This document shows, piece after piece, positions 5,119-26,447 of a stretch of DNA of 64,000 nt. A program made the translations under genes and the position numbers. A model generated the notes under the pieces. That model saw nothing but the letters and a program-made list of their open reading frames with translations, searched no databases and was not told the origin of the DNA. Every line of letters begins with the position of its first letter. Position 1 is the first letter of the stretch. The stretch is from Myxococcota bacterium (GTDB taxonomy: Bacteria > Myxococcota_A > UBA9160 > PR03): the NCBI GenBank assembly GCA_041611735.1, contig JBFIML010000002.1:64001-128000 (forward strand). The letters run 5' to 3'.

Positions 5119-6138
5119 GTGCGAGGCGAGCAGCTCGCCCGGCAGTGGCGCCTGATCCAGCGGCTGGCGCGCAGCCGCGCTGGAGTGGGCCTCGACGTCC
5201 TGGCCGAGGAGCTCGAGTGCGTGCGGCGCACCGTCTACCGGGACCTGGACGCCCTCATGATGGCGGGCTTCCCGCTGCTGAGCGAGCGCCGCGACGGGCG
5301 CGTCTACTACCGGTTCCTGGACACCTTCCGCCTGGGCGACGTGCCGTTCACGGCCGACGAGATCCTGGCCCTCGCCTTCGGCGAGGACCTGCTGCGCACC
5401 CTGGAGGGCACGGTCTTCCACGACTCGATCCGCTCGGCCCTGGAGAAGATCCGGGCCGCCCTGGGGCCCGAGGTCTCCGCCTACCTGGCCCGGCTGGGTC
5501 AGTCGTTTCGGGTGCTGCCGGGACCCCACAAGAGCTATGCCCACCAGCGCGACACGATCCGCGCCCTGAACGAGGCGGTGCTGGACCGACGCACCCTGCG
5601 CATCCGCTACCGCACCGGACGCACCGGCAAGGAGGGCGACCGCGAGCTGGATGCCTACCGGGTCTGGTACCGGGACGGGGCGCTGTACGTGGTCGGGCAC
5701 GATCATCACTCCGGAGAGATCCGCACCTTCGCCGTGGACCGCATTCTCCGCCTGGCCACCACGTCGAAGCGCTTCGAGATTCCCGAGAGCTTCGACTTCG
5801 ACGCCTACATGGGCTCTTCGTTCGGGGTGATCGCGGAGCCCGCCGTGCCGGTGCGGATCCGGTTCGACCCGCGTTGGGCCGAATGGGTGGCCGAGCGCAC
5901 CTGGCACCCGAGCCAGCAGCTCGAGCGTCTGGCGGACGGAAGCCTCGAGCTGCGCATGCAGGTGGGCGGGAACGCCGAGCTGCGGGGCTGGGTGCTCTCG
6001 TTCGGATCCGGCGCCGAGGTGCTCGAGCCCGAGGCCCTGCGGAGCGAGGTGCGCCGCGAGCTGGCCCTGGCCCTGGCCCGCTACGAGCGCGGCGGCCGGC
6101 CTCGCGTCACCCGGCCTGCCCGGACGCCCGGTCCCTAG
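5119..6138 (+). CDS. HTH-WYL transcriptional regulator (YafY/PafBC-like)
   Basis: N-terminal wHTH (RTVYRDLDAL), WYL-like WYRDGALYVVG...RTFAVDRI, C-terminal WCX (WVLSFGSGAEVLEP). Confidence 0.92.
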   Translation: MRGEQLARQWRLIQRLARSRAGVGLDVLAEELECVRRTVYRDLDALMMAGFPLLSERRDGRVYYRFLDTFRLGDVPFTADEILALAFGEDLLRTLEGTVFHDSIRSALEKIRAALGPEVSAYLARLGQSFRVLPGPHKSYAHQRDTIRALNEAVLDRRTLRIRYRTGRTGKEGDRELDAYRVWYRDGALYVVGHDHHSGEIRTFAVDRILRLATTSKRFEIPESFDFDAYMGSSFGVIAEPAVPVRIRFDPRWAEWVAERTWHPSQQLERLADGSLELRMQVGGNAELRGWVLSFGSGAEVLEPEALRSEVRRELALALARYERGGRPRVTRPARTPGP

Positions 6139-7195
6139 AGGCCGCCCGCCGCGCCGGGCCCTCGGAGCCCACCATCATGCCGAGGCTGCGGTAGCGCTCC
6201 TCGCTGCGTTCGGTGATCAACCCGAGCGCCCGCAGGTTCGGAATCACCGTGTGCATGTAGACCAGGCTGTTCAGCTCCGCGAAGTTCGGAAGCTGCAGCG
6301 TTGCTCGCACCACCGCATCCGGGTCGATGTCGTACTTCGGCCCCAGCAGATGGAGCATGTCGAGCTGCTGGTTCGCGTTGAGCGCCTCCAGGACGCTGAA
6401 CGCCCAGTCCTCCATCTCGGCGAGCTCCTCGGGCTCCGCCTCGCGCACGGCGCGGCGCATGCAGAGGACGCCGAACGCCGCATGGCGTGACTCGTCCTGC
6501 TCGACGCGGCGGATCATCTCCTTGAGCAGCGGCTGCTCCGTCTCGCGGCGCATCAGGTCGAAGATGCCCACGGCCATGCCCTCGAATAGGCACTGCATGC
6601 CCAGCGTCTTCTTGCGCGCCGTTTCCGCACGGAGCAGCTCGTCCAGCAGGATCTTGAGGGTCGGTCCGATCGGGTAGATGGTCCCCATCTTGCGTTGGAG
6701 GAACTTGGCGATCGCCTCCACGTGGCGGGCCTCGTCCGCCACCTGACTGGCCGCATACCACTTCTCGTCCATCTTGGTGCACGCGTTGGTGAGCTGGCCG
6801 CACAGCTGCAGGGCTGCCTGCTCGCCGTGAAGGAGCTGGGAGAGCACGTGGGCGAGCTCGTCGAAGGCGGCGGCCCGCTGGGTGGCCTCGTCCCGACCCA
6901 TGAGCCGCAGCACCTGCGCCAGCAGGGAAGCCCGTGGCTGGACGACCCAGGCGTCCTTCGAGACGGGGATCGACCAGTCCAGATCCCGCTCGGCGTTCCA
7001 CTGGTTCACCTTCCCCTTCTCGTAGAGGTTGCGCAGCTCCTCCACCTGCTGGCCGTACTCCCAGGTCCAGTTCAGCTCGAGGGGCACCGCCACGTCGGTC
7101 TGGCGGCGCAGCCGCTCGATCTCTTCGGTGTCCACGAACTCCACCACCTCGAAGTCTCCGAAGCGCCGCCGGTGCTCCCGGATCAGCTTGTCCAC
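6107..7195 (-). CDS. Ferritin-like diiron-carboxylate protein (AurF/desaturase-like)
   Basis: HGEQAAL, DEARH, FEGMA, DESRH: two ExxH motifs plus two additional Glu. Confidence 0.85.
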   Translation of the reverse strand: MDKLIREHRRRFGDFEVVEFVDTEEIERLRRQTDVAVPLELNWTWEYGQQVEELRNLYEKGKVNQWNAERDLDWSIPVSKDAWVVQPRASLLAQVLRLMGRDEATQRAAAFDELAHVLSQLLHGEQAALQLCGQLTNACTKMDEKWYAASQVADEARHVEAIAKFLQRKMGTIYPIGPTLKILLDELLRAETARKKTLGMQCLFEGMAVGIFDLMRRETEQPLLKEMIRRVEQDESRHAAFGVLCMRRAVREAEPEELAEMEDWAFSVLEALNANQQLDMLHLLGPKYDIDPDAVVRATLQLPNFAELNSLVYMHTVIPNLRALGLITERSEERYRSLGMMVGSEGPARRAASRDRASGQAG

Positions 7196-7869
7196 CTGGG
7201 TTCCTCCCCTTCGTACGAAGCCCGCGCGGCGAGCCCGTGCTGCAAGAGCGCCTTCACCTCGCGCTTTCGGCGCGCCACCGCCTCGGCCGAGAGCAGCGGA
7301 CCGCCGAGCAGCCCTTCGCCGAACTCGCCCGAGGCGAAGTGGTAGACCGTGGCGCCGATCAGGCTCTGGATGGTGTGCGCCGTGGAGACGCGGCGGAACT
7401 CGCCGCGGGCACGTCCCTGGCGCAGGAGGCCGCCGATGCCCGAGAGGATGCCCTCGAGGCGCCGCTGGGCGGCGGCGCCCTCCGGCCAGGCCTCCGCGTC
7501 GAAGTCGTCGTCCTCGAAGAGCGCCCGCAGCAGGAGTCGCGCCGCAGGCGGATCCTCGACGAGGGCGTCGATGAGCCCGTCCAGCCAGCGGTCGAGCCGC
7601 ATGCCCGCGTCGCCGGGCGCGTCCAGGCAGGAAGCGAGCCGCTGCTCCAGGCTCTCGAGCACGCGCTCGATCACCGCCAGGTAGAGCTGGGCCTTGGCCC
7701 GGAAGTGGTGGAAGAGCGAGGACTTGCCGAGCCCGGCGGCGTCGGCCACCTCCTGCATGCCGACCCCGGCGAAGCCGCGCCGGGCAAACAGCACCTCGGC
7801 CACCACGAGGATCTTGTCCCGGGAGGGCGACGGCGCCGGGGCGGGCCCGCGCGCGGGCGCTCGGTCCAT
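7183..7869 (-). CDS. TetR-family transcriptional regulator
   Basis: ILVVAEVLFARRGFAGVGMQEVADAAGLGKSSLFHHF HTH; SD GAGGAG before ATG 7869. Confidence 0.93.
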   Translation of the reverse strand: MDRAPARGPAPAPSPSRDKILVVAEVLFARRGFAGVGMQEVADAAGLGKSSLFHHFRAKAQLYLAVIERVLESLEQRLASCLDAPGDAGMRLDRWLDGLIDALVEDPPAARLLLRALFEDDDFDAEAWPEGAAAQRRLEGILSGIGGLLRQGRARGEFRRVSTAHTIQSLIGATVYHFASGEFGEGLLGGPLLSAEAVARRKREVKALLQHGLAARASYEGEEPRWTS

Positions 7870-17791: not shown

Positions 17792-18223
17792 TCAGTCCCC
17801 GGAAGCGTCCGCGGGCGGCGCGAAGACCACCTGGAGCACCGAGCCGACGCTGAGCGCCGCGCTCCCGGGCCCCACGCGGAAGTAGCCCACCGAGATGCTT
17901 GGATCGCCGGCGGCGGGAAACTGTTCGCGGAAGCCCAGCAGCAGGCGCTCCACGATACGCACGGCGGCTTCCGGTTCCACGTCGGCCAGGAACAGCACCG
18001 CCCGCTCGCGCGTCATGCGGAACACCGCATCCTCCACGCGCAGCTCGCTCTCCACGAAGCGCATCACGTCCGGAAACAGCAGATCCCCCTCGGGCGCCGC
18101 GAGGCCCACCACCACCGAGCCGACGGCGTGCTCGCTGGCGAGGTTTCGCAGGCGTCCGAAGAGATCCCACAAACGCCGCGGATCGTCGCTCGTCGTCTCG
18201 CCCATGGCGGTCGCTCCGCGCAT
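17792..18223 (-). CDS. Standalone degenerate GGDEF-fold-like protein
   Basis: LRVEDAVFRMTRERAVLFL matches LRxxDxxxRxGGDEFxxLL with the signature replaced; ISVG strand follows. Confidence 0.55.
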   Translation of the reverse strand: MRGATAMGETTSDDPRRLWDLFGRLRNLASEHAVGSVVVGLAAPEGDLLFPDVMRFVESELRVEDAVFRMTRERAVLFLADVEPEAAVRIVERLLLGFREQFPAAGDPSISVGYFRVGPGSAALSVGSVLQVVFAPPADASGD

Positions 18224-18283: not shown

Positions 18284-19039
18284 CTAGCGGCCGGCCTCGC
18301 GCTCGAAGGCCGCCACGGCCACACCCACCGACAGGGCGGCCAGCCCCACGAGGACCAGCGCGCTGCGCAGCGGCGGGATCTCGTGCACACCCAGCAGCCC
18401 GTAGCGCAGCAGGTCGACGCCGTAGGTCAGCGGATTGGCGTGGGCGAGCGCCCGCGACGCGGCCGGCAACGTGGTCACCGGATAGAAGATTCCGGACAGC
18501 AGATACAGGGGGACGGTGGCCAGGGCGGCCAGCAGGCGAAAGGCCTCGAGGCTGCGCAGACGCGCTGCCAGGGCGACGCCCAGCGCCACGAAGCAGGCGG
18601 TCACCCCGAGGATGGCGAGCAGCGCCGCGCCCGGGTGGGCCAGGCCCACGGAGGTGAAGGGAGCGAAGATCGCCAAGAGGACCGTGACCAGGCCGAGCGA
18701 GGCCACCCCGCGCGCCGCGATCTTGCCCAGCACCAGGCCCGTGCGCGAGACCGGCGCCACCACCAGCGCGCGCAGGAAGCCGCTGTCCCGATCCTGGATC
18801 AGGGAGAAGCCGGCACCCACCGCGCCGGAGCCCACCAGGAGCGCCAGCACCCCGGACGCCAGATGCCCCAGATAGTCGGCGCCCGTGGGGAGTCGAACCA
18901 CGTCGTTCAGCCCCAGGCCGAGGAAGAGCACCACCGCCAGCGGGAAGACGAGCTGACCGATCCAGTAGGCGCGGTCGCGGCGGTAGCGCAACATCTCGCG
19001 CCGGAAGATGGTCGCCGCGTCCGTGAGCAGCGTCGTCAC
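18284..19039 (-). CDS. ABC-2 type permease (DrrB-like)
   Basis: DRDSGFLRALVVAPVSR, LSGIFYP, NPLTYGVD; about 6 TM segments. Confidence 0.92.
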   Translation of the reverse strand: MTTLLTDAATIFRREMLRYRRDRAYWIGQLVFPLAVVLFLGLGLNDVVRLPTGADYLGHLASGVLALLVGSGAVGAGFSLIQDRDSGFLRALVVAPVSRTGLVLGKIAARGVASLGLVTVLLAIFAPFTSVGLAHPGAALLAILGVTACFVALGVALAARLRSLEAFRLLAALATVPLYLLSGIFYPVTTLPAASRALAHANPLTYGVDLLRYGLLGVHEIPPLRSALVLVGLAALSVGVAVAAFEREAGR

Positions 19040-20013
19040 GGGGCTTGCTCCGGCTCGAAGGGATGCCCCGTGTGGTGCAGGAAGACGTGCTCCAGGGTGG
19101 GACGCCGGAGCTCCACGGCCCGGATCCCCAAGGGACGCGCGGCCTCCAGGAGCGCCGGCAGGCGCTGGGGCCCGTCGCGCGTCACGATCGCGACGCGCAC
19201 GGGACCCCGCCCGGCGGGCGCGGGCTCCGGGACGACCCGGATCACACCCGGCACGGCGCCGAGGGCCGCCTCCACCCCCTCCCCGCGCTCGAGCTCGAGC
19301 GCCACGCGATCGCCGCCCAGGGCGGCCTTCAGGGCCTCGGGCTCCCCTTCCGTCACGAGCCGCCCGCGGTCGAGGATGCCGATCCGTCCACACAGGGTGT
19401 CGGCCTCCTGCATGGAGTGGGTGGTCAGGAAGAGCGTGGTCCCCCCCTCGGCGTGGACCCGTCGCAGGTGGTCCCAGACCGCCAGGCGGGCCGCCACGTC
19501 GAGCCCGACGGTGGGCTCGTCCAGGAAGAGGACGCGCGGCTGGTGGAGGAGCCCGCGGCCGATCTCGAGCCGGCGGCGCAGCCCCCCGGAGAGCTGCCGG
19601 ACCGGGCGGTCCGCGTCGCGCTCGAGCCCCAGCCACGCCAGGCTCTCCGCCACGCGACGCCTCCGCTCCGGCAGGTGGTAGAGCCGTGCGTGGAGATCGA
19701 GCTGCTCGCGTCCCGTGAGCTCGCGGTCCAGGGTCGGCTCCTGGAACACGATGCCGACCAGACCGCGCACCGCCCCACGCTCCGCCACCACGTCGCGGCC
19801 GAGCACGTGGGCCCCTCCGGCGGTGGGGCGGGTCTGGCTGGTCAGGATCGACACGGTCGTGGTCTTTCCGGCGCCGTTCGGTCCGAGCAGGCCGTAGCAG
19901 GCGCCCTGGGACACGCGGAGGTCGAGGCCGGCCAGGGCGTGCACGCTGCCGTAGCGCTTCTCGAGCCCGCAAGTCTCGAGAGCCGGGACGCGCGTTGTCG
20001 CGGCAGGGGGCAT
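19036..20013 (-). CDS. ABC transporter ATP-binding protein (DrrA-like)
   Basis: GPNGAGKT, LSGG, FLDEPT, LTTH. Confidence 0.95.
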   Translation of the reverse strand: MPPAATTRVPALETCGLEKRYGSVHALAGLDLRVSQGACYGLLGPNGAGKTTTVSILTSQTRPTAGGAHVLGRDVVAERGAVRGLVGIVFQEPTLDRELTGREQLDLHARLYHLPERRRRVAESLAWLGLERDADRPVRQLSGGLRRRLEIGRGLLHQPRVLFLDEPTVGLDVAARLAVWDHLRRVHAEGGTTLFLTTHSMQEADTLCGRIGILDRGRLVTEGEPEALKAALGGDRVALELERGEGVEAALGAVPGVIRVVPEPAPAGRGPVRVAIVTRDGPQRLPALLEAARPLGIRAVELRRPTLEHVFLHHTGHPFEPEQAP

Positions 20014-20081
20014 CTTCTACCGTCCGAGCGGGTCGCTGCGCCTGCGGGCGCGGCGGCGAGATCCTACGCAACGGAGCCTCC

Positions 20082-22292
20082 GTGCGCGACACGACCGCAG
20101 CGGACGTCCCGCGCCGCGCGCACCGCCTGGCCCGGGGCTTCGGGGCGCTGGTGGCCCTCACCTTCGGGCTGATCGTGCTCGGTGCGCTGGTGCGCGCCCA
20201 CGATGCCGGCCTGGCCTGCCCCGACTGGCCCCGCTGCTTCGGGGTCTGGGTCCCCGCCATGGACCTGCGCGTCGCCTTCGAGTGGACGCATCGTCTGCTG
20301 GCGGGCAGCGTGGGGGTCGTCTTCCTGGGTCTGGCCGGCCTGGCCCTGCGCGGCAGGGAGACCCGTCGCGCCGTGGGCATCCCGCTGGCGCTGGCCAGCG
20401 TCCTGCTGGTTTCCCAGGTGGTGCTGGGCGGCCTGACGGTGCTCCTCGGCCTCGCGCCCTGGACCGTGACCCTGCACCTGGTGACGGGAAACGCCTTCGC
20501 GGTGACGCTCCTCCTGGTGGCCCTGGGCCTGCGCGAGCAGGCGGCCCCGCGGCTGCGCGGGCCGGTTGCGCCGCGTGTGCAGGGGGCCGTGGTCGTCGTG
20601 GCCGGCCTGCTGGCGCTCCAGATCGTGCTGGGCGGCCTGGTCTCCTCCCACTACGCCGGGCTCGCCTGCCCGGACTGGCCCGCCTGCCACGGCGGGGCCT
20701 GGTTCCCCTCCTGGCAGGGTGCCGTCGGGCTCCACCTGCTGCACCGCAGCAACGGCTACCTGCTGCTGGCGGCCCTGGCCGGCGCCGCCTGGATCGCCCG
20801 CAGGCAGCAGCGCGTGGCACGCCCGCTCCGCCTACTGCTCGCCCTCGCCCTGCTGCAGGTCGCGGTGGGCGTGGCGAACGTGCTGCTGGCGATCCCGGTT
20901 GCGGTGACGGGGCTCCACTCGGCGCTGGCGGCGGCGCTGGTGCTCGGCCTGGGCTGGGGCGCCCGGGAGGCCTGGGCGCGGCCCGCGCCGGCGCCCGCGC
21001 GGCAGCCGCGGGTGGTCGTGGTCGGCGCCGGCTTCGGCGGCCTCGCCCTGGCACGTCGGCTCGCCGACGCACCCGCGGACGTACTCCTGATCGACCGCCA
21101 GAACTTCCACGCCTTCCTTCCGCTGCTCTACCAGGTGGCGACGGCAGGCCTGAGCGTGCAGGACGTGTCGCACCCCGTGAGGGCGATCCTGCGCGGACTG
21201 CCGAACGTGCGCTTCCGCCTGGGGGAGATCGTGGGCGGTGACCTGGAGGCCCGTGTGCTCCAGACCGCTACCGGTGACCGCATCCCCTACGACGTCCTGG
21301 TGCTCGCCGCCGGTAGCACCACGGAGTTCTTCGGCCGGGCCGACGTGGCCCGGCACGCCTTCCGGCTGCACCACGCCGCGGACGCCCTGGAGCTGCGCAA
21401 TCAGGTGCTCTCGGCCCTCGAGCGGGCCGACGTCGAAGCGGACCCCAAGCAGCGCGAGGCCCTGCTCGGCTTCGTGGTGGTGGGGGGCGGGCCCACGGGA
21501 GTCGAGCTGGCGGGCATGCTCGCCGAGCTGCGCCAGCACGTGCTGCCCCGGGACTTCCCCGGCATCGCCGCCGACATGCGCGTCGTCCTGGTGGAGGGTG
21601 GGGAGCGCCTGCTCCCCGCCCTGCCGGCGGGGCTGTCCCGACGCGCGCTGGAGCAGATGCGCGAGCTCGGGGCGGACGTTCGTCTCGACGCCTTCGTGGA
21701 GGCCGTGGACCCGGACGGGGTGCGTCTGCGGGGCGGCGAGCGGCTTTCGGCTCGCACGACGGTGTGGGCCGCTGGCGTGCGCGGGGCCGGTCTGGCCGCG
21801 GCCCTGGGCCTGCCGACCGACCGGCGCGGACGCGTCGCCGTGGGATCCACCCTGGAGGTGGCGGGGCGCCCGGACGTGTACGTGATCGGGGACCTGGCAT
21901 GCGCGGAGGGGCAGGCGTCGATCCCGCAGGTGGCGCCGGCAGCCATCCAGCAGGGACAGCTCGTGGCGGACAACCTGAAGCGCCGCGTGCTCGGCCGGCC
22001 CCCCGTGGCCTTCCGCTACCAGGACCTGGGCACCATGGCCACGATCGGGCGCAACCGCGCCGTCGCCCACCTGATGGGCCTCGAGATCGCGGGCCGGCTG
22101 GCATGGTGGGCCTGGCTGCTGGTGCACCTGGTGAAGCTGGTGGGGTTCCGCAACCGTCTCGTCGTGTTCGTGAACTGGATCTATCACTACTTCAGCTACG
22201 ACCTGGAGCTGCGGGCGGTGGTGGGGCCCGAGGCCCGGGCGCCCCGGTCGGAAGAATCCGCCGCAGCCGCGCGGCACGCAACCCAGCGATGA
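20082..22292 (+). CDS. Fusion protein: heme A synthase (CtaA/Cox15) + type II NADH dehydrogenase-like flavoprotein
   Basis: N-half: LACPDWPRC, FEWTHR, LHL, LACPDWPAC, LHR, LHSA. C-half: VVVGAGFGG, PLLYQVAT, GGGPTGVE, WAAGV, GD, YQDLGTMATIGR. No stop between them; GTG 20082 follows GGAG. Confidence 0.88.
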   Translation: MRDTTAADVPRRAHRLARGFGALVALTFGLIVLGALVRAHDAGLACPDWPRCFGVWVPAMDLRVAFEWTHRLLAGSVGVVFLGLAGLALRGRETRRAVGIPLALASVLLVSQVVLGGLTVLLGLAPWTVTLHLVTGNAFAVTLLLVALGLREQAAPRLRGPVAPRVQGAVVVVAGLLALQIVLGGLVSSHYAGLACPDWPACHGGAWFPSWQGAVGLHLLHRSNGYLLLAALAGAAWIARRQQRVARPLRLLLALALLQVAVGVANVLLAIPVAVTGLHSALAAALVLGLGWGAREAWARPAPAPARQPRVVVVGAGFGGLALARRLADAPADVLLIDRQNFHAFLPLLYQVATAGLSVQDVSHPVRAILRGLPNVRFRLGEIVGGDLEARVLQTATGDRIPYDVLVLAAGSTTEFFGRADVARHAFRLHHAADALELRNQVLSALERADVEADPKQREALLGFVVVGGGPTGVELAGMLAELRQHVLPRDFPGIAADMRVVLVEGGERLLPALPAGLSRRALEQMRELGADVRLDAFVEAVDPDGVRLRGGERLSARTTVWAAGVRGAGLAAALGLPTDRRGRVAVGSTLEVAGRPDVYVIGDLACAEGQASIPQVAPAAIQQGQLVADNLKRRVLGRPPVAFRYQDLGTMATIGRNRAVAHLMGLEIAGRLAWWAWLLVHLVKLVGFRNRLVVFVNWIYHYFSYDLELRAVVGPEARAPRSEESAAAARHATQR

Positions 22293-22308: not shown

Positions 22309-22791
22309 ATGCGCGCCTGGCAGATCTTCGCGGGCATGTCGCCGGAGCAGGTCCAGGCGTGGTGCCGGCGCCTGGCGGACGAGTCACCGCCCGCCTTCGC
22401 CCAGGCGCTGGCCGCGGCCGCGGCGCTCTTGAAGGCGCGGCCGGTCTACGTGCGCAAGCTCCCCTTCGAACGTCGCGCGGAGCTGGTGCGTCGCGCCCTG
22501 GCCCGGGTGGCAGCCAACGACCTGGCCGAGGAGATACTGGCCAGCTACTTCCTGGACTGCCGGCGCGAGCTGCTCGAGGAATGGCTCGACGCGGTGGGCG
22601 TCGAACACGAGGATGGGATGCTCAAGAGCGATGCGCCGGCCGCGCCCGCCAAGAGGAAGCTCGACGCGGCGGTGAAGCGCTTCCGGGCCGGCGGCGGCGA
22701 CACGGACAGCAGCGACCGCGAGCTCCTGCTGCGCACCTTTGCGGCCCAGCGCGCCATCGAATGGCCGGACCTCGACGCCCTGCTGGCCTGA
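22309..22791 (+). CDS. Hypothetical protein
   Basis: Helical, protein-like sequence (WLDAVGVEHEDG) with high-GC codon usage. Confidence 0.7.
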   Translation: MRAWQIFAGMSPEQVQAWCRRLADESPPAFAQALAAAAALLKARPVYVRKLPFERRAELVRRALARVAANDLAEEILASYFLDCRRELLEEWLDAVGVEHEDGMLKSDAPAAPAKRKLDAAVKRFRAGGGDTDSSDRELLLRTFAAQRAIEWPDLDALLA

Positions 22792-22827: not shown

Positions 22828-23682
22828 TCACGAGCCCAGAGTGATGGCAGCGTTGCTGATGACCGGCGACTGGCGCTCCCGGGTCTGCGCCGCCAGCAGG
22901 ATGCGGTCGCCCTCCTCCCAGAGCGAGGTCACGACCGTCTCGCCCGGGAAGACGACGCCCGCGAAGCGGGCCTGGTAGCGCGCTACCCGCGCCACGTCCC
23001 CGCCCAGCACCTGGTCCACCACCGCCTTGCACACGATCCCGAACGAGCACAGCCCGTGCAGGATGGGTCGGTCGAAACCGCCGAGCTTGGCGAAGTCCGG
23101 GTCGGCGTGGAGCGGGTTCTTGTCGCCCGAGAGGCGGTAGAGGAGCGCCTGCTGGGGCAAGGTGGGCGACTCCACCACCCGGTCCGGCTTCCGCTCCGGT
23201 GGCTGGTTGCCGGCCTTCGGCCCCGCCTCCCCGCCGAAGCCACCTTCGCCGCGCAGGAAGATGGAGGAGCGGTTCGTGAACAGCTTCTTCCCGGAGTCGT
23301 TCCGGGTCTCCACCTCGACGACCACGAGCGCGGCCTTTCCCTTGTCGTAGACCCCGGCGATGCGGCCGGCGCTCTGCACCCGGGCCTGGGTCGGGATCGG
23401 ACCGAACAGCTCGATGTCCTGCTCGCCGTGCAGCAGCAGGGCCGGATTGAACTGCAGCCCGGGCACACCCAGGATGCCCCCCATGGCGGGAAAGGCGGGG
23501 ATCACCCCGTAGCTCGGCATCACCCGGAGGCTCTTCTCGTAGGTGAGGGCCAGCTCGCCCGGCTCGGTGGGCGGGTTCCCGGCCCCGATGCCCAGGTGGT
23601 AGAGGATCACGCGGTCCGGGTCCCACTGGTACGGGACCGGCGGAAGCTCCGCTCCGAGCGCCTTGTGCGGATCGATCGGCAT
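22828..23682 (-). CDS. MaoC-type (R)-enoyl-CoA hydratase 2 (MFE-2 hydratase-like)
   Basis: LLHGEQ, YRLSGDKNPLHADP, PILHGLC, VFPGET. Confidence 0.93.
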   Translation of the reverse strand: MPIDPHKALGAELPPVPYQWDPDRVILYHLGIGAGNPPTEPGELALTYEKSLRVMPSYGVIPAFPAMGGILGVPGLQFNPALLLHGEQDIELFGPIPTQARVQSAGRIAGVYDKGKAALVVVEVETRNDSGKKLFTNRSSIFLRGEGGFGGEAGPKAGNQPPERKPDRVVESPTLPQQALLYRLSGDKNPLHADPDFAKLGGFDRPILHGLCSFGIVCKAVVDQVLGGDVARVARYQARFAGVVFPGETVVTSLWEEGDRILLAAQTRERQSPVISNAAITLGS

Positions 23683-23693
23683 GGCCCCCTCCC

Positions 23694-24596
23694 CTACTTC
23701 AAGAGCTCGAGCAAGAGCTTCATCTCGTCGGCGATGCTGTCCGGGATGATGAAGCCGTCCGTCTTGCGGATCTCGTCCATGTGGTCCCGCACCTCCTCGG
23801 CGCCGGGCTTGGCGTCGGGGCCCGCGAACCAGCCCCGGGTGAGACCGACGAACATGCGCGCGTAGCGTCCGCCGCCCACCGAGAAGATCTGGTGGGTGAG
23901 GTCGCACTGCTCCGAGCAGAGGTACGTGACGAGCGGCGTCACGCACTCCGGATCCAGCTTCTCCGCCATGGGCCCGAGCAGCTCCTCGGTCATGCGCGTG
24001 CGGGCCACGGGCGCGATCACGTTGCTCTTGATGTTGTACTTGGCGCCCTCGATGGCGAGCACGTTCGAGAGCCCGACCAGACCCATCTTGGCCGCGCCGT
24101 AGTTGGTCTGCCCGAAGTTGCCGAGCAGACCCGCGTTGGAGGCGGTGAAGACCACACGCCCGTAGTTGTTGTCCTTCATGGCGCGGAAGGCCGGCTGGGT
24201 GACGAAGAAGGCGCCCTTCAGGTGGACGGCCAGCACCGCCTCCAGGTCCTCGGGCGGGAGCTTGGCGAAGGTCTTGTCGCGCAGGATGCCCGCATTGTTG
24301 ATCACCACGTCGAGGCGCCCGAAGGCGTCGAGGGCCGTCTTCACCATGGCCTCGCCGCCCTCGGGGGTGGCGACCGAGTCATAGTTGGCCACGGCCTCGC
24401 CGCCGGCCTCCTGGATCTCCTTCACGGTCTCGTCGGCCATGCTGTGGCCGCCGCCCTCGCCGCGCGTGCTGCCACCCAGGTCGTTCACCACCAGCTTGGC
24501 ACCGCGCCGTGCCATCTCCAGGGAGTAGGTCTTGCCGAGGCCACCGCCTGCTCCGGTCACGAGGGCGACCCGTCCGTCGAAGCGAATCTCGCTCAT
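23694..24596 (-). CDS. SDR, MFE-2/HSD17B4 dehydrogenase-like
   Basis: TGAGGGLG, VVNDLGG, NNAGILRD, GNFGQTNYGAAK. Confidence 0.93.
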   Translation of the reverse strand: MSEIRFDGRVALVTGAGGGLGKTYSLEMARRGAKLVVNDLGGSTRGEGGGHSMADETVKEIQEAGGEAVANYDSVATPEGGEAMVKTALDAFGRLDVVINNAGILRDKTFAKLPPEDLEAVLAVHLKGAFFVTQPAFRAMKDNNYGRVVFTASNAGLLGNFGQTNYGAAKMGLVGLSNVLAIEGAKYNIKSNVIAPVARTRMTEELLGPMAEKLDPECVTPLVTYLCSEQCDLTHQIFSVGGGRYARMFVGLTRGWFAGPDAKPGAEEVRDHMDEIRKTDGFIIPDSIADEMKLLLELLK

Positions 24597-24684
24597 GAAG
24601 CCTCCTGGGGGGGCGCGCGCAAGCGCGCCGCCAGTGAAAGCGCCGCTGCCCGGGGACCTCCCCGGGCCCGACAACATACGCCGG

Positions 24685-25812
24685 CTAGCCGGCCGAGGCC
24701 ATCTCCTTGAAGGCCCGACCGATCTTCTTGCGGCCGCGATTGATCTCCCGGAGCTCGGCCATGGCCGCGTCGGCGATGTCCTCGCCGGCGACCCACTCGC
24801 CCTCGCGCGCGAGCTCGCCCATGTCCACCCAGGCGGCGTAGAGGGGACGGGTCCGCTCGGTGATGATGCCGGCGTTGGCCAGCGTCTTGATCAGCACCCG
24901 GAAGATGTTGGTACTCTGCCGCATGAGCCGGCGGCGATCCTCGTCGGTGAAGGCCTCCTGGACCGCGCTCCGCACCCACTGCCAGTCGAGCCCGAACTGC
25001 GGGTAGAGTGCCTGCTTCTGTTCCGCGTTGACGAGGTTGTTGAAGACCCGGTGGAAGCAGTGGGCCGCCCAGTCCTCGACCTTCACGTGCTCCTCTTCGG
25101 TCAGCTTGGGAACGGTGCGGTTGGCCCAGATGCGCCCGAAGCGGTGGTGGAAGGCCTCATCGGTCATGACGAGCTGCACCACGCGGCGCAACAGCGGGTC
25201 GTTGGTCCGGGAGTGGAGGGTGGCGAAGGCGCCCATGGCGAGCCCCTCGATGAGCATCTGCATGCCCACCAGCTTCTTGTACACCTGCGGAGCCTCCACG
25301 ATCTCGACCATGAGCTCCCGCAGCGTCCGGCCCGCCTCGATCGGGGTGCCCCAGCGGGCCTGGATGTAGCGCGAGAAGGCGGTCACGTGGCGCGCCTCCT
25401 CCCGCACCTGGTTGGCGGCGTACTCCTGGGCGCCCGGGTCGTAGAGCACGTCGCACAGGCTCGCCGAGAGCGAGAGCGCGCCCTGCTCTCCGTGCAGGAT
25501 CTGGGAGAGGTTGAAGCGCGTCACCTCGTTGGCGAGACGGATCTTCTGGCCCTCGTCGAGGCGATCCGCCACCGCGCAGTTGAGCTCCACCACGAAGTCG
25601 CGCGGCATCAAGGTCTCGTTGGCGACGTCGAAGGGCTGCTGGAAGTCCACGTAGCTCGGGTCGTTCGGATCCCAGAAGTGGTCCACGGTGGCCGAGATGA
25701 TCTCGTCGAAGGCGCCCGTACGCCGCGCGTAGCGCTCCACCTCGATCATCGAGGCGAAATCGTCGGGAGCGACGGTGTCGTAGATCGGATCGTGGGTGAT
25801 GTGATCAGCCAT
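24685..25812 (-). CDS. Ferritin-like diiron-carboxylate protein (second paralog)
   Basis: HGEQGAL, EEARH, IEGLAMG, DEAFHH. Confidence 0.87.
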   Translation of the reverse strand: MADHITHDPIYDTVAPDDFASMIEVERYARRTGAFDEIISATVDHFWDPNDPSYVDFQQPFDVANETLMPRDFVVELNCAVADRLDEGQKIRLANEVTRFNLSQILHGEQGALSLSASLCDVLYDPGAQEYAANQVREEARHVTAFSRYIQARWGTPIEAGRTLRELMVEIVEAPQVYKKLVGMQMLIEGLAMGAFATLHSRTNDPLLRRVVQLVMTDEAFHHRFGRIWANRTVPKLTEEEHVKVEDWAAHCFHRVFNNLVNAEQKQALYPQFGLDWQWVRSAVQEAFTDEDRRRLMRQSTNIFRVLIKTLANAGIITERTRPLYAAWVDMGELAREGEWVAGEDIADAAMAELREINRGRKKIGRAFKEMASAG

Positions 25813-25838
25813 GGCTCTCGCGTCTCCTCCTGACGGCT

Positions 25839-26447
25839 TCAGGCCGCGGCCAGCGGATGCAGCCGCACCAGGGTGTCTACCACCGCCTCGCGGGGGGCGC
25901 GGGTGGGATCCTCCACCCACCACGCCACCACGCGGGTCCACATGGCCACCAGCGCCCGGGCGGCCACGGCCGGGTCGAGACCCGGCGCCAGCGCCCCCGC
26001 CTCGAGCCGCTCGCGCAGGCGGGCTTCGACCCCCGGCAGCAGCTCGTCCACCACCGCCTCGCCGAGATCGGGAGCCTCCGGGCCGCGCCCGAACAGGACC
26101 TGCACGAGGCTGCGGTTCTCCTCGGCGAAGGCCACCAGCTCGGCGGTCGACGCGTGCAGGACAGCGGCCGGATCGGCGCCGGCCGCGCGCCGGGCCCGCT
26201 CCATGCGAGCACGCAGGCGTCCCAGGGCATCGAAGACGATCTCCCGGAACAGCTCGCGCTTGTCCCGGAAGTGGAGGTAGTAGGTTCCCGCGGCGACCCC
26301 GGCGCGACGGGCGATCTGCACGGTGGTGGTGCGGTGCAGGCCCTGGCGGGCGAACAGCTCGGTGCCCGCATCGACCAGACGCCTGCGCGTCTCGAGGCGG
26401 CTGCGACCGGGGGCGGTGGCGGGGTCGCGGGGGAGGGTGATTCTCAT
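25839..26447 (-). CDS. TetR-family transcriptional regulator
   Basis: TRRRLVDAGTELFARQG...IARRAGVAAGTYYLHFRDK. Confidence 0.93.
   Translation of the reverse strand: MRITLPRDPATAPGRSRLETRRRLVDAGTELFARQGLHRTTTVQIARRAGVAAGTYYLHFRDKRELFREIVFDALGRLRARMERARRAAGADPAAVLHASTAELVAFAEENRSLVQVLFGRGPEAPDLGEAVVDELLPGVEARLRERLEAGALAPGLDPAVAARALVAMWTRVVAWWVEDPTRAPREAVVDTLVRLHPLAAA

Follow-up and report, generated by a model that had tools for sequence, protein, structure and literature searches.

The 64,000-nucleotide stretch of Myxococcota DNA analyzed here (hereafter the window) contains a gene at 20082-22292 (+) in which a heme A synthase of the CtaA/COX15 family and a type II NADH dehydrogenase (NDH-2) are encoded one behind the other in a single frame. 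The fused ctaA-ndh gene specifies 736 amino acids and a stop codon (protein P0001). It is almost certainly a real and conserved single gene whose product is a bifunctional inner-membrane protein, in which an intact eight-helix CtaA is joined to an intact NDH-2 on the cytoplasmic face. The fused protein is genuine and is selectively maintained in one family of uncultured Myxococcota; it is new as a combination of known parts. Heme A, the product of CtaA, is needed by all aa3/caa3-type oxidases.

The G+C content of the window is 72-74%, at which spurious long open reading frames are common, and the coding frame of the fusion was therefore tested directly. The enclosing open reading frame extends from 19995 to 22292 (+), and translation from the GTG at 20082, which is preceded at 5 nt by a GGAG, yields 736 residues with no internal stop. 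G+C content at third codon positions (GC3) in this frame is 0.88-1.00 in all 120-nt segments starting between 20082 and 22152, including those across the junction (20892-21072), and drops to 0.45-0.80 before 20082 and after 22242. A Pfam scan places COX15-CtaA (PF02628) at residues 23-288 (146.2 bits, cut-off 29.9), Pyr_redox_2 (PF07992) at 310-625 (153 bits, cut-off 26.1), Pyr_redox (PF00070) at 465-547 (51 bits) and NDH2_C (PF22366) at 649-703 (41.5 bits, cut-off 27.7); the same scan of the fusion gives no match to a ferredoxin or Fe-S domain or to a UbiA domain, and no sensory domain. Translation, Pfam and GC3 thus agree on the one uninterrupted frame of about 736 codons that a preliminary description, made from the letters alone, had reported.

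The heme A synthase domain comprises residues 1-298 (20082-20975, +), as delimited by PF02628, by a match to Bacillus subtilis CtaA (6a2j) and by the helices of an AlphaFold2 (AF2) model, and the NDH-2 flavoprotein half occupies 21009-22289 (+), as delimited by PF07992, PF00070 and PF22366, by matches to 9mqy_A, 5na1 and 4nwz, and by Foldseek. Between them, in the sequence and the AF2 model, is a linker of residues 299-309 (20976-21008, +) that connects the end of the eighth transmembrane helix (TM8) to strand beta-1 of the flavin adenine dinucleotide (FAD) fold; the linker sequence WARPAPAPARQP is found at residues 297-308, and the junction linker measures about 11-13 residues in all. In an alignment of the query with 48 full-length relatives (alignment A1, which leaves out the identical P0002 and the 701-aa P0008), the stretch from E296 to R310 has an identical length in 41/49 and varies by no more than one residue in 46/49.

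Read mapping across the junction had been proposed as a check, and contigs from four public runs do span it with no inserted or deleted letters. Two of these, X1 record 7 (20810-21044, 235 nt) and X5 record 9 (20600-21013, 414 nt), show 0 differences to the window, and X8 record 25 (20606-21145, 540 nt) has 58 substitutions and 0 gaps, and therefore represents a diverged relative from another study. A protein cluster 100% identical to the fusion (P0002) is recorded on 12 contigs. An assembly or frameshift artefact that joined two separate genes is thus refuted for practical purposes: nothing was found in its favor, the record being a metagenome-assembled genome (MAG) of 118 contigs at 95% completeness, and against it stand the gap-free bridging contigs of several studies, the unbroken GC3, and the same single frame in 14 other genomes and 49 other protein clusters.

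Judged by its residues, namely two Cys pairs, four His and the Glu of TM2, the N-terminal half is a B. subtilis-type heme A synthase. The first outer-loop Cys pair, C46-PDWPR-C52 (20217-20237, +), the E67-W-T-H70-R71 motif of TM2 (20280-20294, +) and the second outer-loop Cys pair, C196-PDWPA-C202 (20667-20687, +), were located in the sequence and, for the latter two, by alignment to B. subtilis CtaA. C46, C52, E67, H70, R71, H132, C196, C202, H221 and H279 are invariant in 49/49 sequences of A1, so that both CPDWPxC loops, the ExxHR motif and the His ligands are all found where the preliminary description had placed them. Pairwise similarity to 6a2j is weak (E 1.9e-9); the alignment pairs the TM2 Glu and His (E67 and H70 with E57 and H60 of the B. 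subtilis protein), the TM4 His (H132), the second Cys pair and the TM6 His (H221), and H279 is assigned by Pfam coverage and family invariance only. B. subtilis CtaA (6A2J/6IED) likewise belongs to PF02628, is built of eight helices, has a Cys pair in each of the two long outer loops and contains the Glu-x-x-His of TM2 together with a His in each of TM4, TM6 and TM8; that enzyme is a stand-alone protein of about 309 aa, whereas the one described here continues into a 430-aa flavoprotein at its C terminus. A Cys pair in each of outer loops 1 and 3 is described as the mark of the B. subtilis-type class (10.1101/2020.03.01.968255).

The AF2 model, computed on A1, has a mean predicted local distance difference test score (pLDDT) of 78.3 and a predicted template modeling score (pTM) of 0.77. 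It contains eight membrane helices of 26-32 residues (8-39, 62-90, 92-121, 126-154, 164-189, 213-238, 243-269 and 272-298), with strand beta-1 of the FAD fold following TM8 at 310-314. About 22 Arg are found in the N terminus, the TM2-3, TM4-5 and TM6-7 loops and the linker, versus 2 Arg on the side of the Cys loops. This distribution argues that both CtaA termini and the flavodomain are cytoplasmic and, together with the eight predicted helices, supports the earlier expectation that an eight-helix CtaA would leave the flavodomain on that side. With the membrane depth of heme b taken from helix positions, each of the four His ligands is separated by 6-8 residues from the outer end of its helix and by 17-22 from the inner end, a span to the cytoplasmic side of roughly 26-33 Å.

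The C-terminal half can be read as a functional NADH:quinone oxidoreductase, that is, a canonical NDH-2. The FAD-binding motif GAGFGG (residues 315-320; 21024-21041, +) is invariant in A1, as are G468, G469, G470, T472 and G473 of the NAD(P)H-binding motif GGGPTG (residues 468-473; 21483-21500, +), and the membrane-anchoring helices of NDH2_C (residues 649-703; 22026-22190, +) contain many invariant positions, among them W675, W678, H682 and F689-R692. The quinone-site motif A618-P-A-A-I-Q623 (21933-21950, +), located by alignment to 9mqy, 5na1 and 4nwz, is an APxAxQ variant of the AQxAxQ that most NDH-2s carry; Q616, Q623 and Q624 are invariant in A1, and position 619 is Pro in 4/49 (the closest sub-clade to the window) and Gln in 45/49. 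Pro619 was considered as a mark of a lost quinone site and rejected, because it is confined to these 4/49 and because APxAxQ is on record as a naturally occurring motif, seen in 10% of 1762 NDH-2s (PMC5299459). In the Caldalkalibacillus thermarum enzyme the equivalent Gln, Q317, clamps the quinone head group (PMC6167311). The intact quinone site therefore indicates quinone reduction.

Comparison with solved structures leads to the same assignment. The half matches the mycobacterial NDH-2 9mqy with 277 bits over residues 301-718, in an alignment that extends to the C-terminal helices of its anchor domain, and matches the NDH-2s of Staphylococcus aureus, B. subtilis and C. thermarum (including 5na1 and 4nwz) with 141-146 bits. 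A Foldseek comparison of the AF2 C-terminal half with solved NDH-2s returns TMt values of 0.70-0.80 (9mqy 0.71, 5na1 0.78, 4nwz 0.77) at probability 1.00. The complete NDH-2 of the preliminary description, with its FAD and NAD(P)H motifs and C-terminal anchor, is accordingly recovered by Pfam, motifs and structural matches alike. Two Rossmann folds, the quinone motif and C-terminal anchor helices are shared with mycobacterial NDH-2 (9MQY/9MQZ) and with 5NA1, 4NWZ, 9PXK and Ndi1 (4G6G). Known NDH-2s are described as monotopic, and either free-standing or held on a separate scaffold such as YjlC (PMC13433803); by contrast, the present one is attached covalently behind an eight-helix membrane enzyme and, in the copy of the window, carries APxAxQ.

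The fusion is the only PF02628 match and the only NDH2_C match of its genome. A separate CtaB gene is located on contig C22 (306 bits), and an A-type COX1 scores 442 bits to PF00115 and 589.5 bits to TIGR02891, the latter over its full length but below the cut-off of 670.75. As the only CtaA in a genome with CtaB and an A-type oxidase, the fusion must, on this gene content, be the cell's working heme A synthase, converting heme O to heme A. Complex I is present as well (NuoD match), and NDH-2 is therefore unneeded as sole NADH dehydrogenase. About 5 kb from the A-type COX1 there is a second, divergent heme-copper oxidase subunit I (G000:C48:8527-9888, +), with 188 bits to PF00115 and just 52 bits to the aa3-type model.

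Among the best 120 proteins listed, 56 carry both PF02628 and PF07992; 50 of these are full length (701-781 aa) and 6 are fragments. The 50 full-length clusters, all with PF02628, PF07992 and PF22366, consist of the window's P0002 and 49 others at 59-73% identity, and the source names of the fused proteins include 'COX15/CtaA family protein [Myxococcota bacterium]' and 'NADH dehydrogenase'. Two MAGs labeled 'uncultured Spirochaetales bacterium' (loci L028, L033 and L041) carry the fusion at 61-62% identity with the same neighbors; these labels look doubtful. A search of 60 related genomes for a match spanning both halves found the fusion in 14 of 16 other genomes of the window's family (f1), where it extends to 5 further genera and is cut by a contig end in G002, and in 0/44 genomes of 11 other families.

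In one genus (g19) of the sister family f4, ctaA and ndh are adjacent but separate. The two genes share a GTGA stop/start overlap in G036, and in G028 a TAG is followed after 8 nt by the GTG of ndh, behind a GGAGG. Linkage thus predates fusion, and the split pair of g19 is a translationally coupled precursor form. The same slot can be recognized by the gene directly 3′ of the fusion, orfX (P0271, 160 aa; 22309-22791, +), which is present in 24/25 related loci, including the split forms and those without NDH-2. Because orfX comes next after the fusion, after the split pair and after the NDH-less ctaA alike, and also after unlinked ctaA in six further families, the ctaA-orfX order is ancestral, and ndh was inserted between both genes.

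Trees of the two halves (MAFFT alignments, FastTree with LG+gamma, midpoint-rooted) were built from 12 fused, 2 adjacent, 2 NDH-less and 10 unlinked sequences, with the fused genomes G002, G010 and G012 outside the sample. The fused NDH-2s form one clade (0.98) whose sister group is the adjacent genes of g19 (0.98); unlinked NDH-2s fall elsewhere. The CtaA of g19 clusters with its own family f4 (0.91), and the fused CtaAs form a weaker clade (0.69) with genus g5 of f1 next to it (0.56). Within f1, the sub-clades of the CtaA and NDH-2 halves are congruent. Two histories would fit these trees: an old linkage that was lost several times, or an ndh clade that entered the same slot twice.

The arrangement bears on a long-standing question, since the electron donor of bacterial heme A synthases is given as 'not determined yet' (10.1101/2020.03.01.968255), in agreement with what the preliminary description had said of the redox partner of bacterial CtaA. 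Heme A synthase needs O2 and follows a radical-based chemistry in which the formyl oxygen comes from water (PMC9145763). In mitochondria, ferredoxin and its reductase provide the reducing equivalents that the synthase requires. Yeast Cox15 works with Yah1/Arh1, a ferredoxin system that supplies electrons, which probably enter at heme b (PMC7140478). The Schizosaccharomyces pombe protein Etp1, cited earlier as a precedent, is indeed a ferredoxin/Cox15 fusion (PMC11408685); it is worded differently, as a Yah1/Arh1 fusion, in PMC7140478. Etp1 and the present protein both combine a heme A synthase and a redox protein in one polypeptide, but the partner in Etp1 is a [2Fe-2S] ferredoxin in a eukaryote, whereas here it is an FAD-containing NADH:quinone flavoprotein in a bacterium, and the resemblance is functional only.

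The flavodomain may oxidize NADH, pass the electrons to its FAD and reduce membrane quinone at its own quinone site beside CtaA. The local quinol, rather than FAD, would then deliver electrons to heme b or the O2-activating center of CtaA, and NADH would in this way drive the conversion of heme O's methyl group into heme A's formyl group. The same NDH-2 domain probably also adds to reduction of the general quinone pool. The position of the His ligands near the outer face favors such a diffusible quinol over direct transfer from FAD to heme, and it argues against direct contact between FAD and heme, the distance between which the preliminary description had suggested measuring. Coupling from NADH through FAD and quinone to CtaA within the fusion is, by a narrow margin and at less than even odds, the likeliest of the readings considered, put forward tentatively from sequence and predicted structure.

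Several features of the two halves are consistent with coupling. The link between CtaA and NDH-2 functions that the preliminary description had read from the fusion is strengthened by the coupled adjacent pair of f4 and by the grouping of ctaA-linked NDH-2s in one clade; the module is no general requirement, since two f1 genomes have CtaA and an A-type oxidase without NDH-2. The pTM of 0.77 is reached although the larger domain makes up only 58% of the chain, which suggests a defined arrangement of both domains in the model. Docking of residues 1-298 and 308-736 with 2 hemes and FAD, run without controls, scored 0.28, 0.32 and 0.22 against a mark of 0.32, and weighs on neither side of the question of contact. 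On the cytoplasmic side of CtaA, the TM4-5 loop contains LPT..RR (L-P-T-x-x-R-R) in 10/12 fused CtaAs and the TM6-7 loop contains RPLR in 11/12, versus 0/14 for either among the adjacent, NDH-less or unlinked forms; as a possible interface with the flavodomain, these loops are suggestive only.

A number of observations weigh against coupling. Loop conservation is confounded by shared ancestry, and the window and G003 are without LPT..RR. The fusion carries the only NDH-2 of the genome and so may simply provide a housekeeping enzyme, and it would be odd for a low-flux biosynthetic enzyme to be tied 1:1 to a respiratory dehydrogenase. In two genomes of genus g5, within f1, orfX comes immediately after ctaA and an A-type COX1 is encoded (G004, 91% complete, COX1 688.6 bits; G008, 87%, 571.9 bits), and neither NDH2_C nor, at E<=1e-20, an NDH-2 match was found. 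In the other families of the order ctaA and ndh lie apart, in G027 for instance by 2 Mb, and an NDH-2-like gene is found within about 6 kb of ctaA in 0/63 loci from other lineages. Among the best 150 of 32,401 matches, from a set of 1.84 billion representatives, the CtaA-NDH-2 layout occurs in one 50% cluster (P0015) only. Finally, NDH-2 is found fused to unrelated membrane domains elsewhere, and such fusions may serve anchoring only. Because G004 and G008 keep CtaA and oxidase without NDH-2, the module is at most facultative, and it seems to enhance electron supply without being strictly required.

The main alternative is a bifunctional protein without redox coupling, in which coupled neighbor genes were merged by a small frame change at the GTGA overlap. 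CtaA would then use another donor, and NDH-2 would be an ordinary alternative dehydrogenase that gains at most an anchor or co-expression with the biogenesis of the aerobic chain. The overlap seen in G036 makes such a merger easy, and the quinone site and anchor helices are fully retained, as in a free-standing NDH-2; the NDH-2-less relatives, the sole NDH-2 of the genome, the many unrelated membrane domains joined to NDH-2 and the 0/63 count for independent linkage all point the same way. Less easily explained by such a merger are the placement of ndh within the ctaA-orfX operon of two families with non-sister CtaAs, the retention of the fusion in 6 genera with a conserved linker length, the unusual conservation of cytoplasmic CtaA loops in fused forms and the two-domain arrangement suggested by pTM; with complex I present, moreover, a housekeeping NDH-2 is not required. 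A merger without coupling is nearly as likely as coupling, though likewise short of probable.

An improbable alternative is that the flavodomain is protective or regulatory, either keeping the local quinone reduced and so limiting radical side reactions of CtaA, or sensing NADH/NAD+ to gate heme A formation, without being the stoichiometric donor. The module is dispensable in relatives, and the radical-based, O2-dependent chemistry cited above would give protection a purpose, but nothing specific speaks for this role, all catalytic NDH-2 motifs are intact, and the Pfam scan of the fusion found no sensory domain.

Direct transfer from NADH through FAD to the CtaA heme without quinone, as in a self-sufficient monooxygenase of the P450-BM3 kind, is very improbable. 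The linker is short and conserved, and the Cox15-ferredoxin fusion Etp1 offers an analogy. However, the four invariant His are 17-22 residues, or roughly 26-33 Å, from the cytoplasmic helix ends, a gap that, on helix positions, would far exceed the usual electron tunneling limit of roughly 14 Å, and conservation of the quinone motif and anchor helices would be unexpected if quinone were bypassed. Moreover, the FAD of NDH-2s is positioned at or above the cytoplasmic membrane interface (PMC6167311).

The wider habit of NDH-2 fusion can be seen among 26 long matches that were checked by Pfam. DoxX-NDH-2 accounts for 12/26, counted as 50% identity clusters (P0143, P0149, P0151, P0158, P0179, P0198, P0199, P0200, P0204, P0209, P0212 and P0233), and FTR1-NDH-2, Na_Ca_ex-NDH-2 and DUF3891-NDH-2 (among P0139, P0182 and P0132) occur once each, as do C-terminal additions of cNMP_binding or PD40; 8 of the 26 have no further domain at E<=1e-5. 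Other matches of about 700 aa were considered as further CtaA-NDH-2 fusions and rejected, since PF02628 is present in 0/26. The DoxX, FTR1 and Na_Ca_ex forms resemble the ctaA-ndh product in having a polytopic membrane domain, a short linker and an NDH-2 with NDH2_C, with a total length of about 680-740 aa for DoxX- and FTR1-NDH-2 and 825 aa for Na_Ca_ex-NDH-2, and differ from it in that their N-terminal domain is not PF02628. This recurrence of NDH-2 behind a polytopic membrane domain fits a portable electron-input module and equally fits simple anchoring. A full-text search, by which subscription journals are mostly uncovered, found no paper on DoxX-NDH-2.

A different kind of CtaA fusion is also known. 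Locus L067, in an Actinomycetes MAG, matches query residues 10-390 and was considered as an independent CtaA-NDH-2 fusion; it was rejected, the 700-aa protein (5740-7842, +) being a CtaA-CtaB fusion, a known kind. CtaA-CtaB is the only fusion mentioned in the passages drawn from PMC9145763. As in the present protein, CtaA forms the N-terminal part of a longer membrane protein, there linking two heme A-related steps; the CtaB partner, however, is the heme O synthase of the UbiA family and provides for substrate channeling and not electron supply, and the ctaA-ndh product has no UbiA domain. A search of the full-text literature found no description of a CtaA-NDH-2 fusion, in line with the earlier statement that no characterized example was known; subscription journals are mostly uncovered by it, so this is not proof that the fusion is unpublished.

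The fusion and its translationally coupled split form name a concrete candidate route, from NADH through NDH-2 and quinol to CtaA, and the fusion is a single polypeptide with which the reductant of a bacterial heme A synthase becomes testable in vitro. If the route is true, it would next have to be asked whether quinol dependence extends to ordinary CtaAs, the B. subtilis enzyme among them. More broadly, and with little confidence, membrane quinol produced from NADH by NDH-2 or complex I might be the reductant of bacterial heme A synthases generally, a supply that f1 would have hard-wired by operon insertion and then fusion; the DoxX and FTR1 fusions would then represent a portable NADH-driven input module for membrane redox proteins. 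If the route is false, the fusion is still a clean example of the passage from operon insertion through overlap to fusion, and still part of a wider, undescribed habit of placing NDH-2 behind polytopic membrane domains.

The remaining genes of the neighborhood are less uniform. The orfX product has no family assigned, with no Pfam or NCBIfam match and no PDB match below E 0.9, and may be an unrecognized accessory protein of heme A synthase or of oxidase assembly. Its composition is that of a soluble, helical protein. On the other side of the fusion is a small divergent open reading frame (P0272, 143 aa; 17792-18223, -) that is kept in 23/25 related loci and shows a GGDEF-like match at E 0.0076, below the Pfam cut-off. 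Between P0272 and ctaA, and divergent from the latter, the window has a DrrAB-like ABC-2 exporter (18284-20013, -; permease 18284-19036, ATPase 19036-20013), which is shared at this position with a few relatives (L009/L024 and L021-L023); the ATPase is found in 5/25 loci, and most fusion loci lack the exporter at this place. Downstream, a block at 22828-25941 (-) and 25839-26447 (-) encodes a MaoC-like hydratase, a short-chain dehydrogenase, an AurF-like di-iron oxygenase (below the Pfam cut-off) and a TetR regulator, and is 74-83% identical in several fusion loci.

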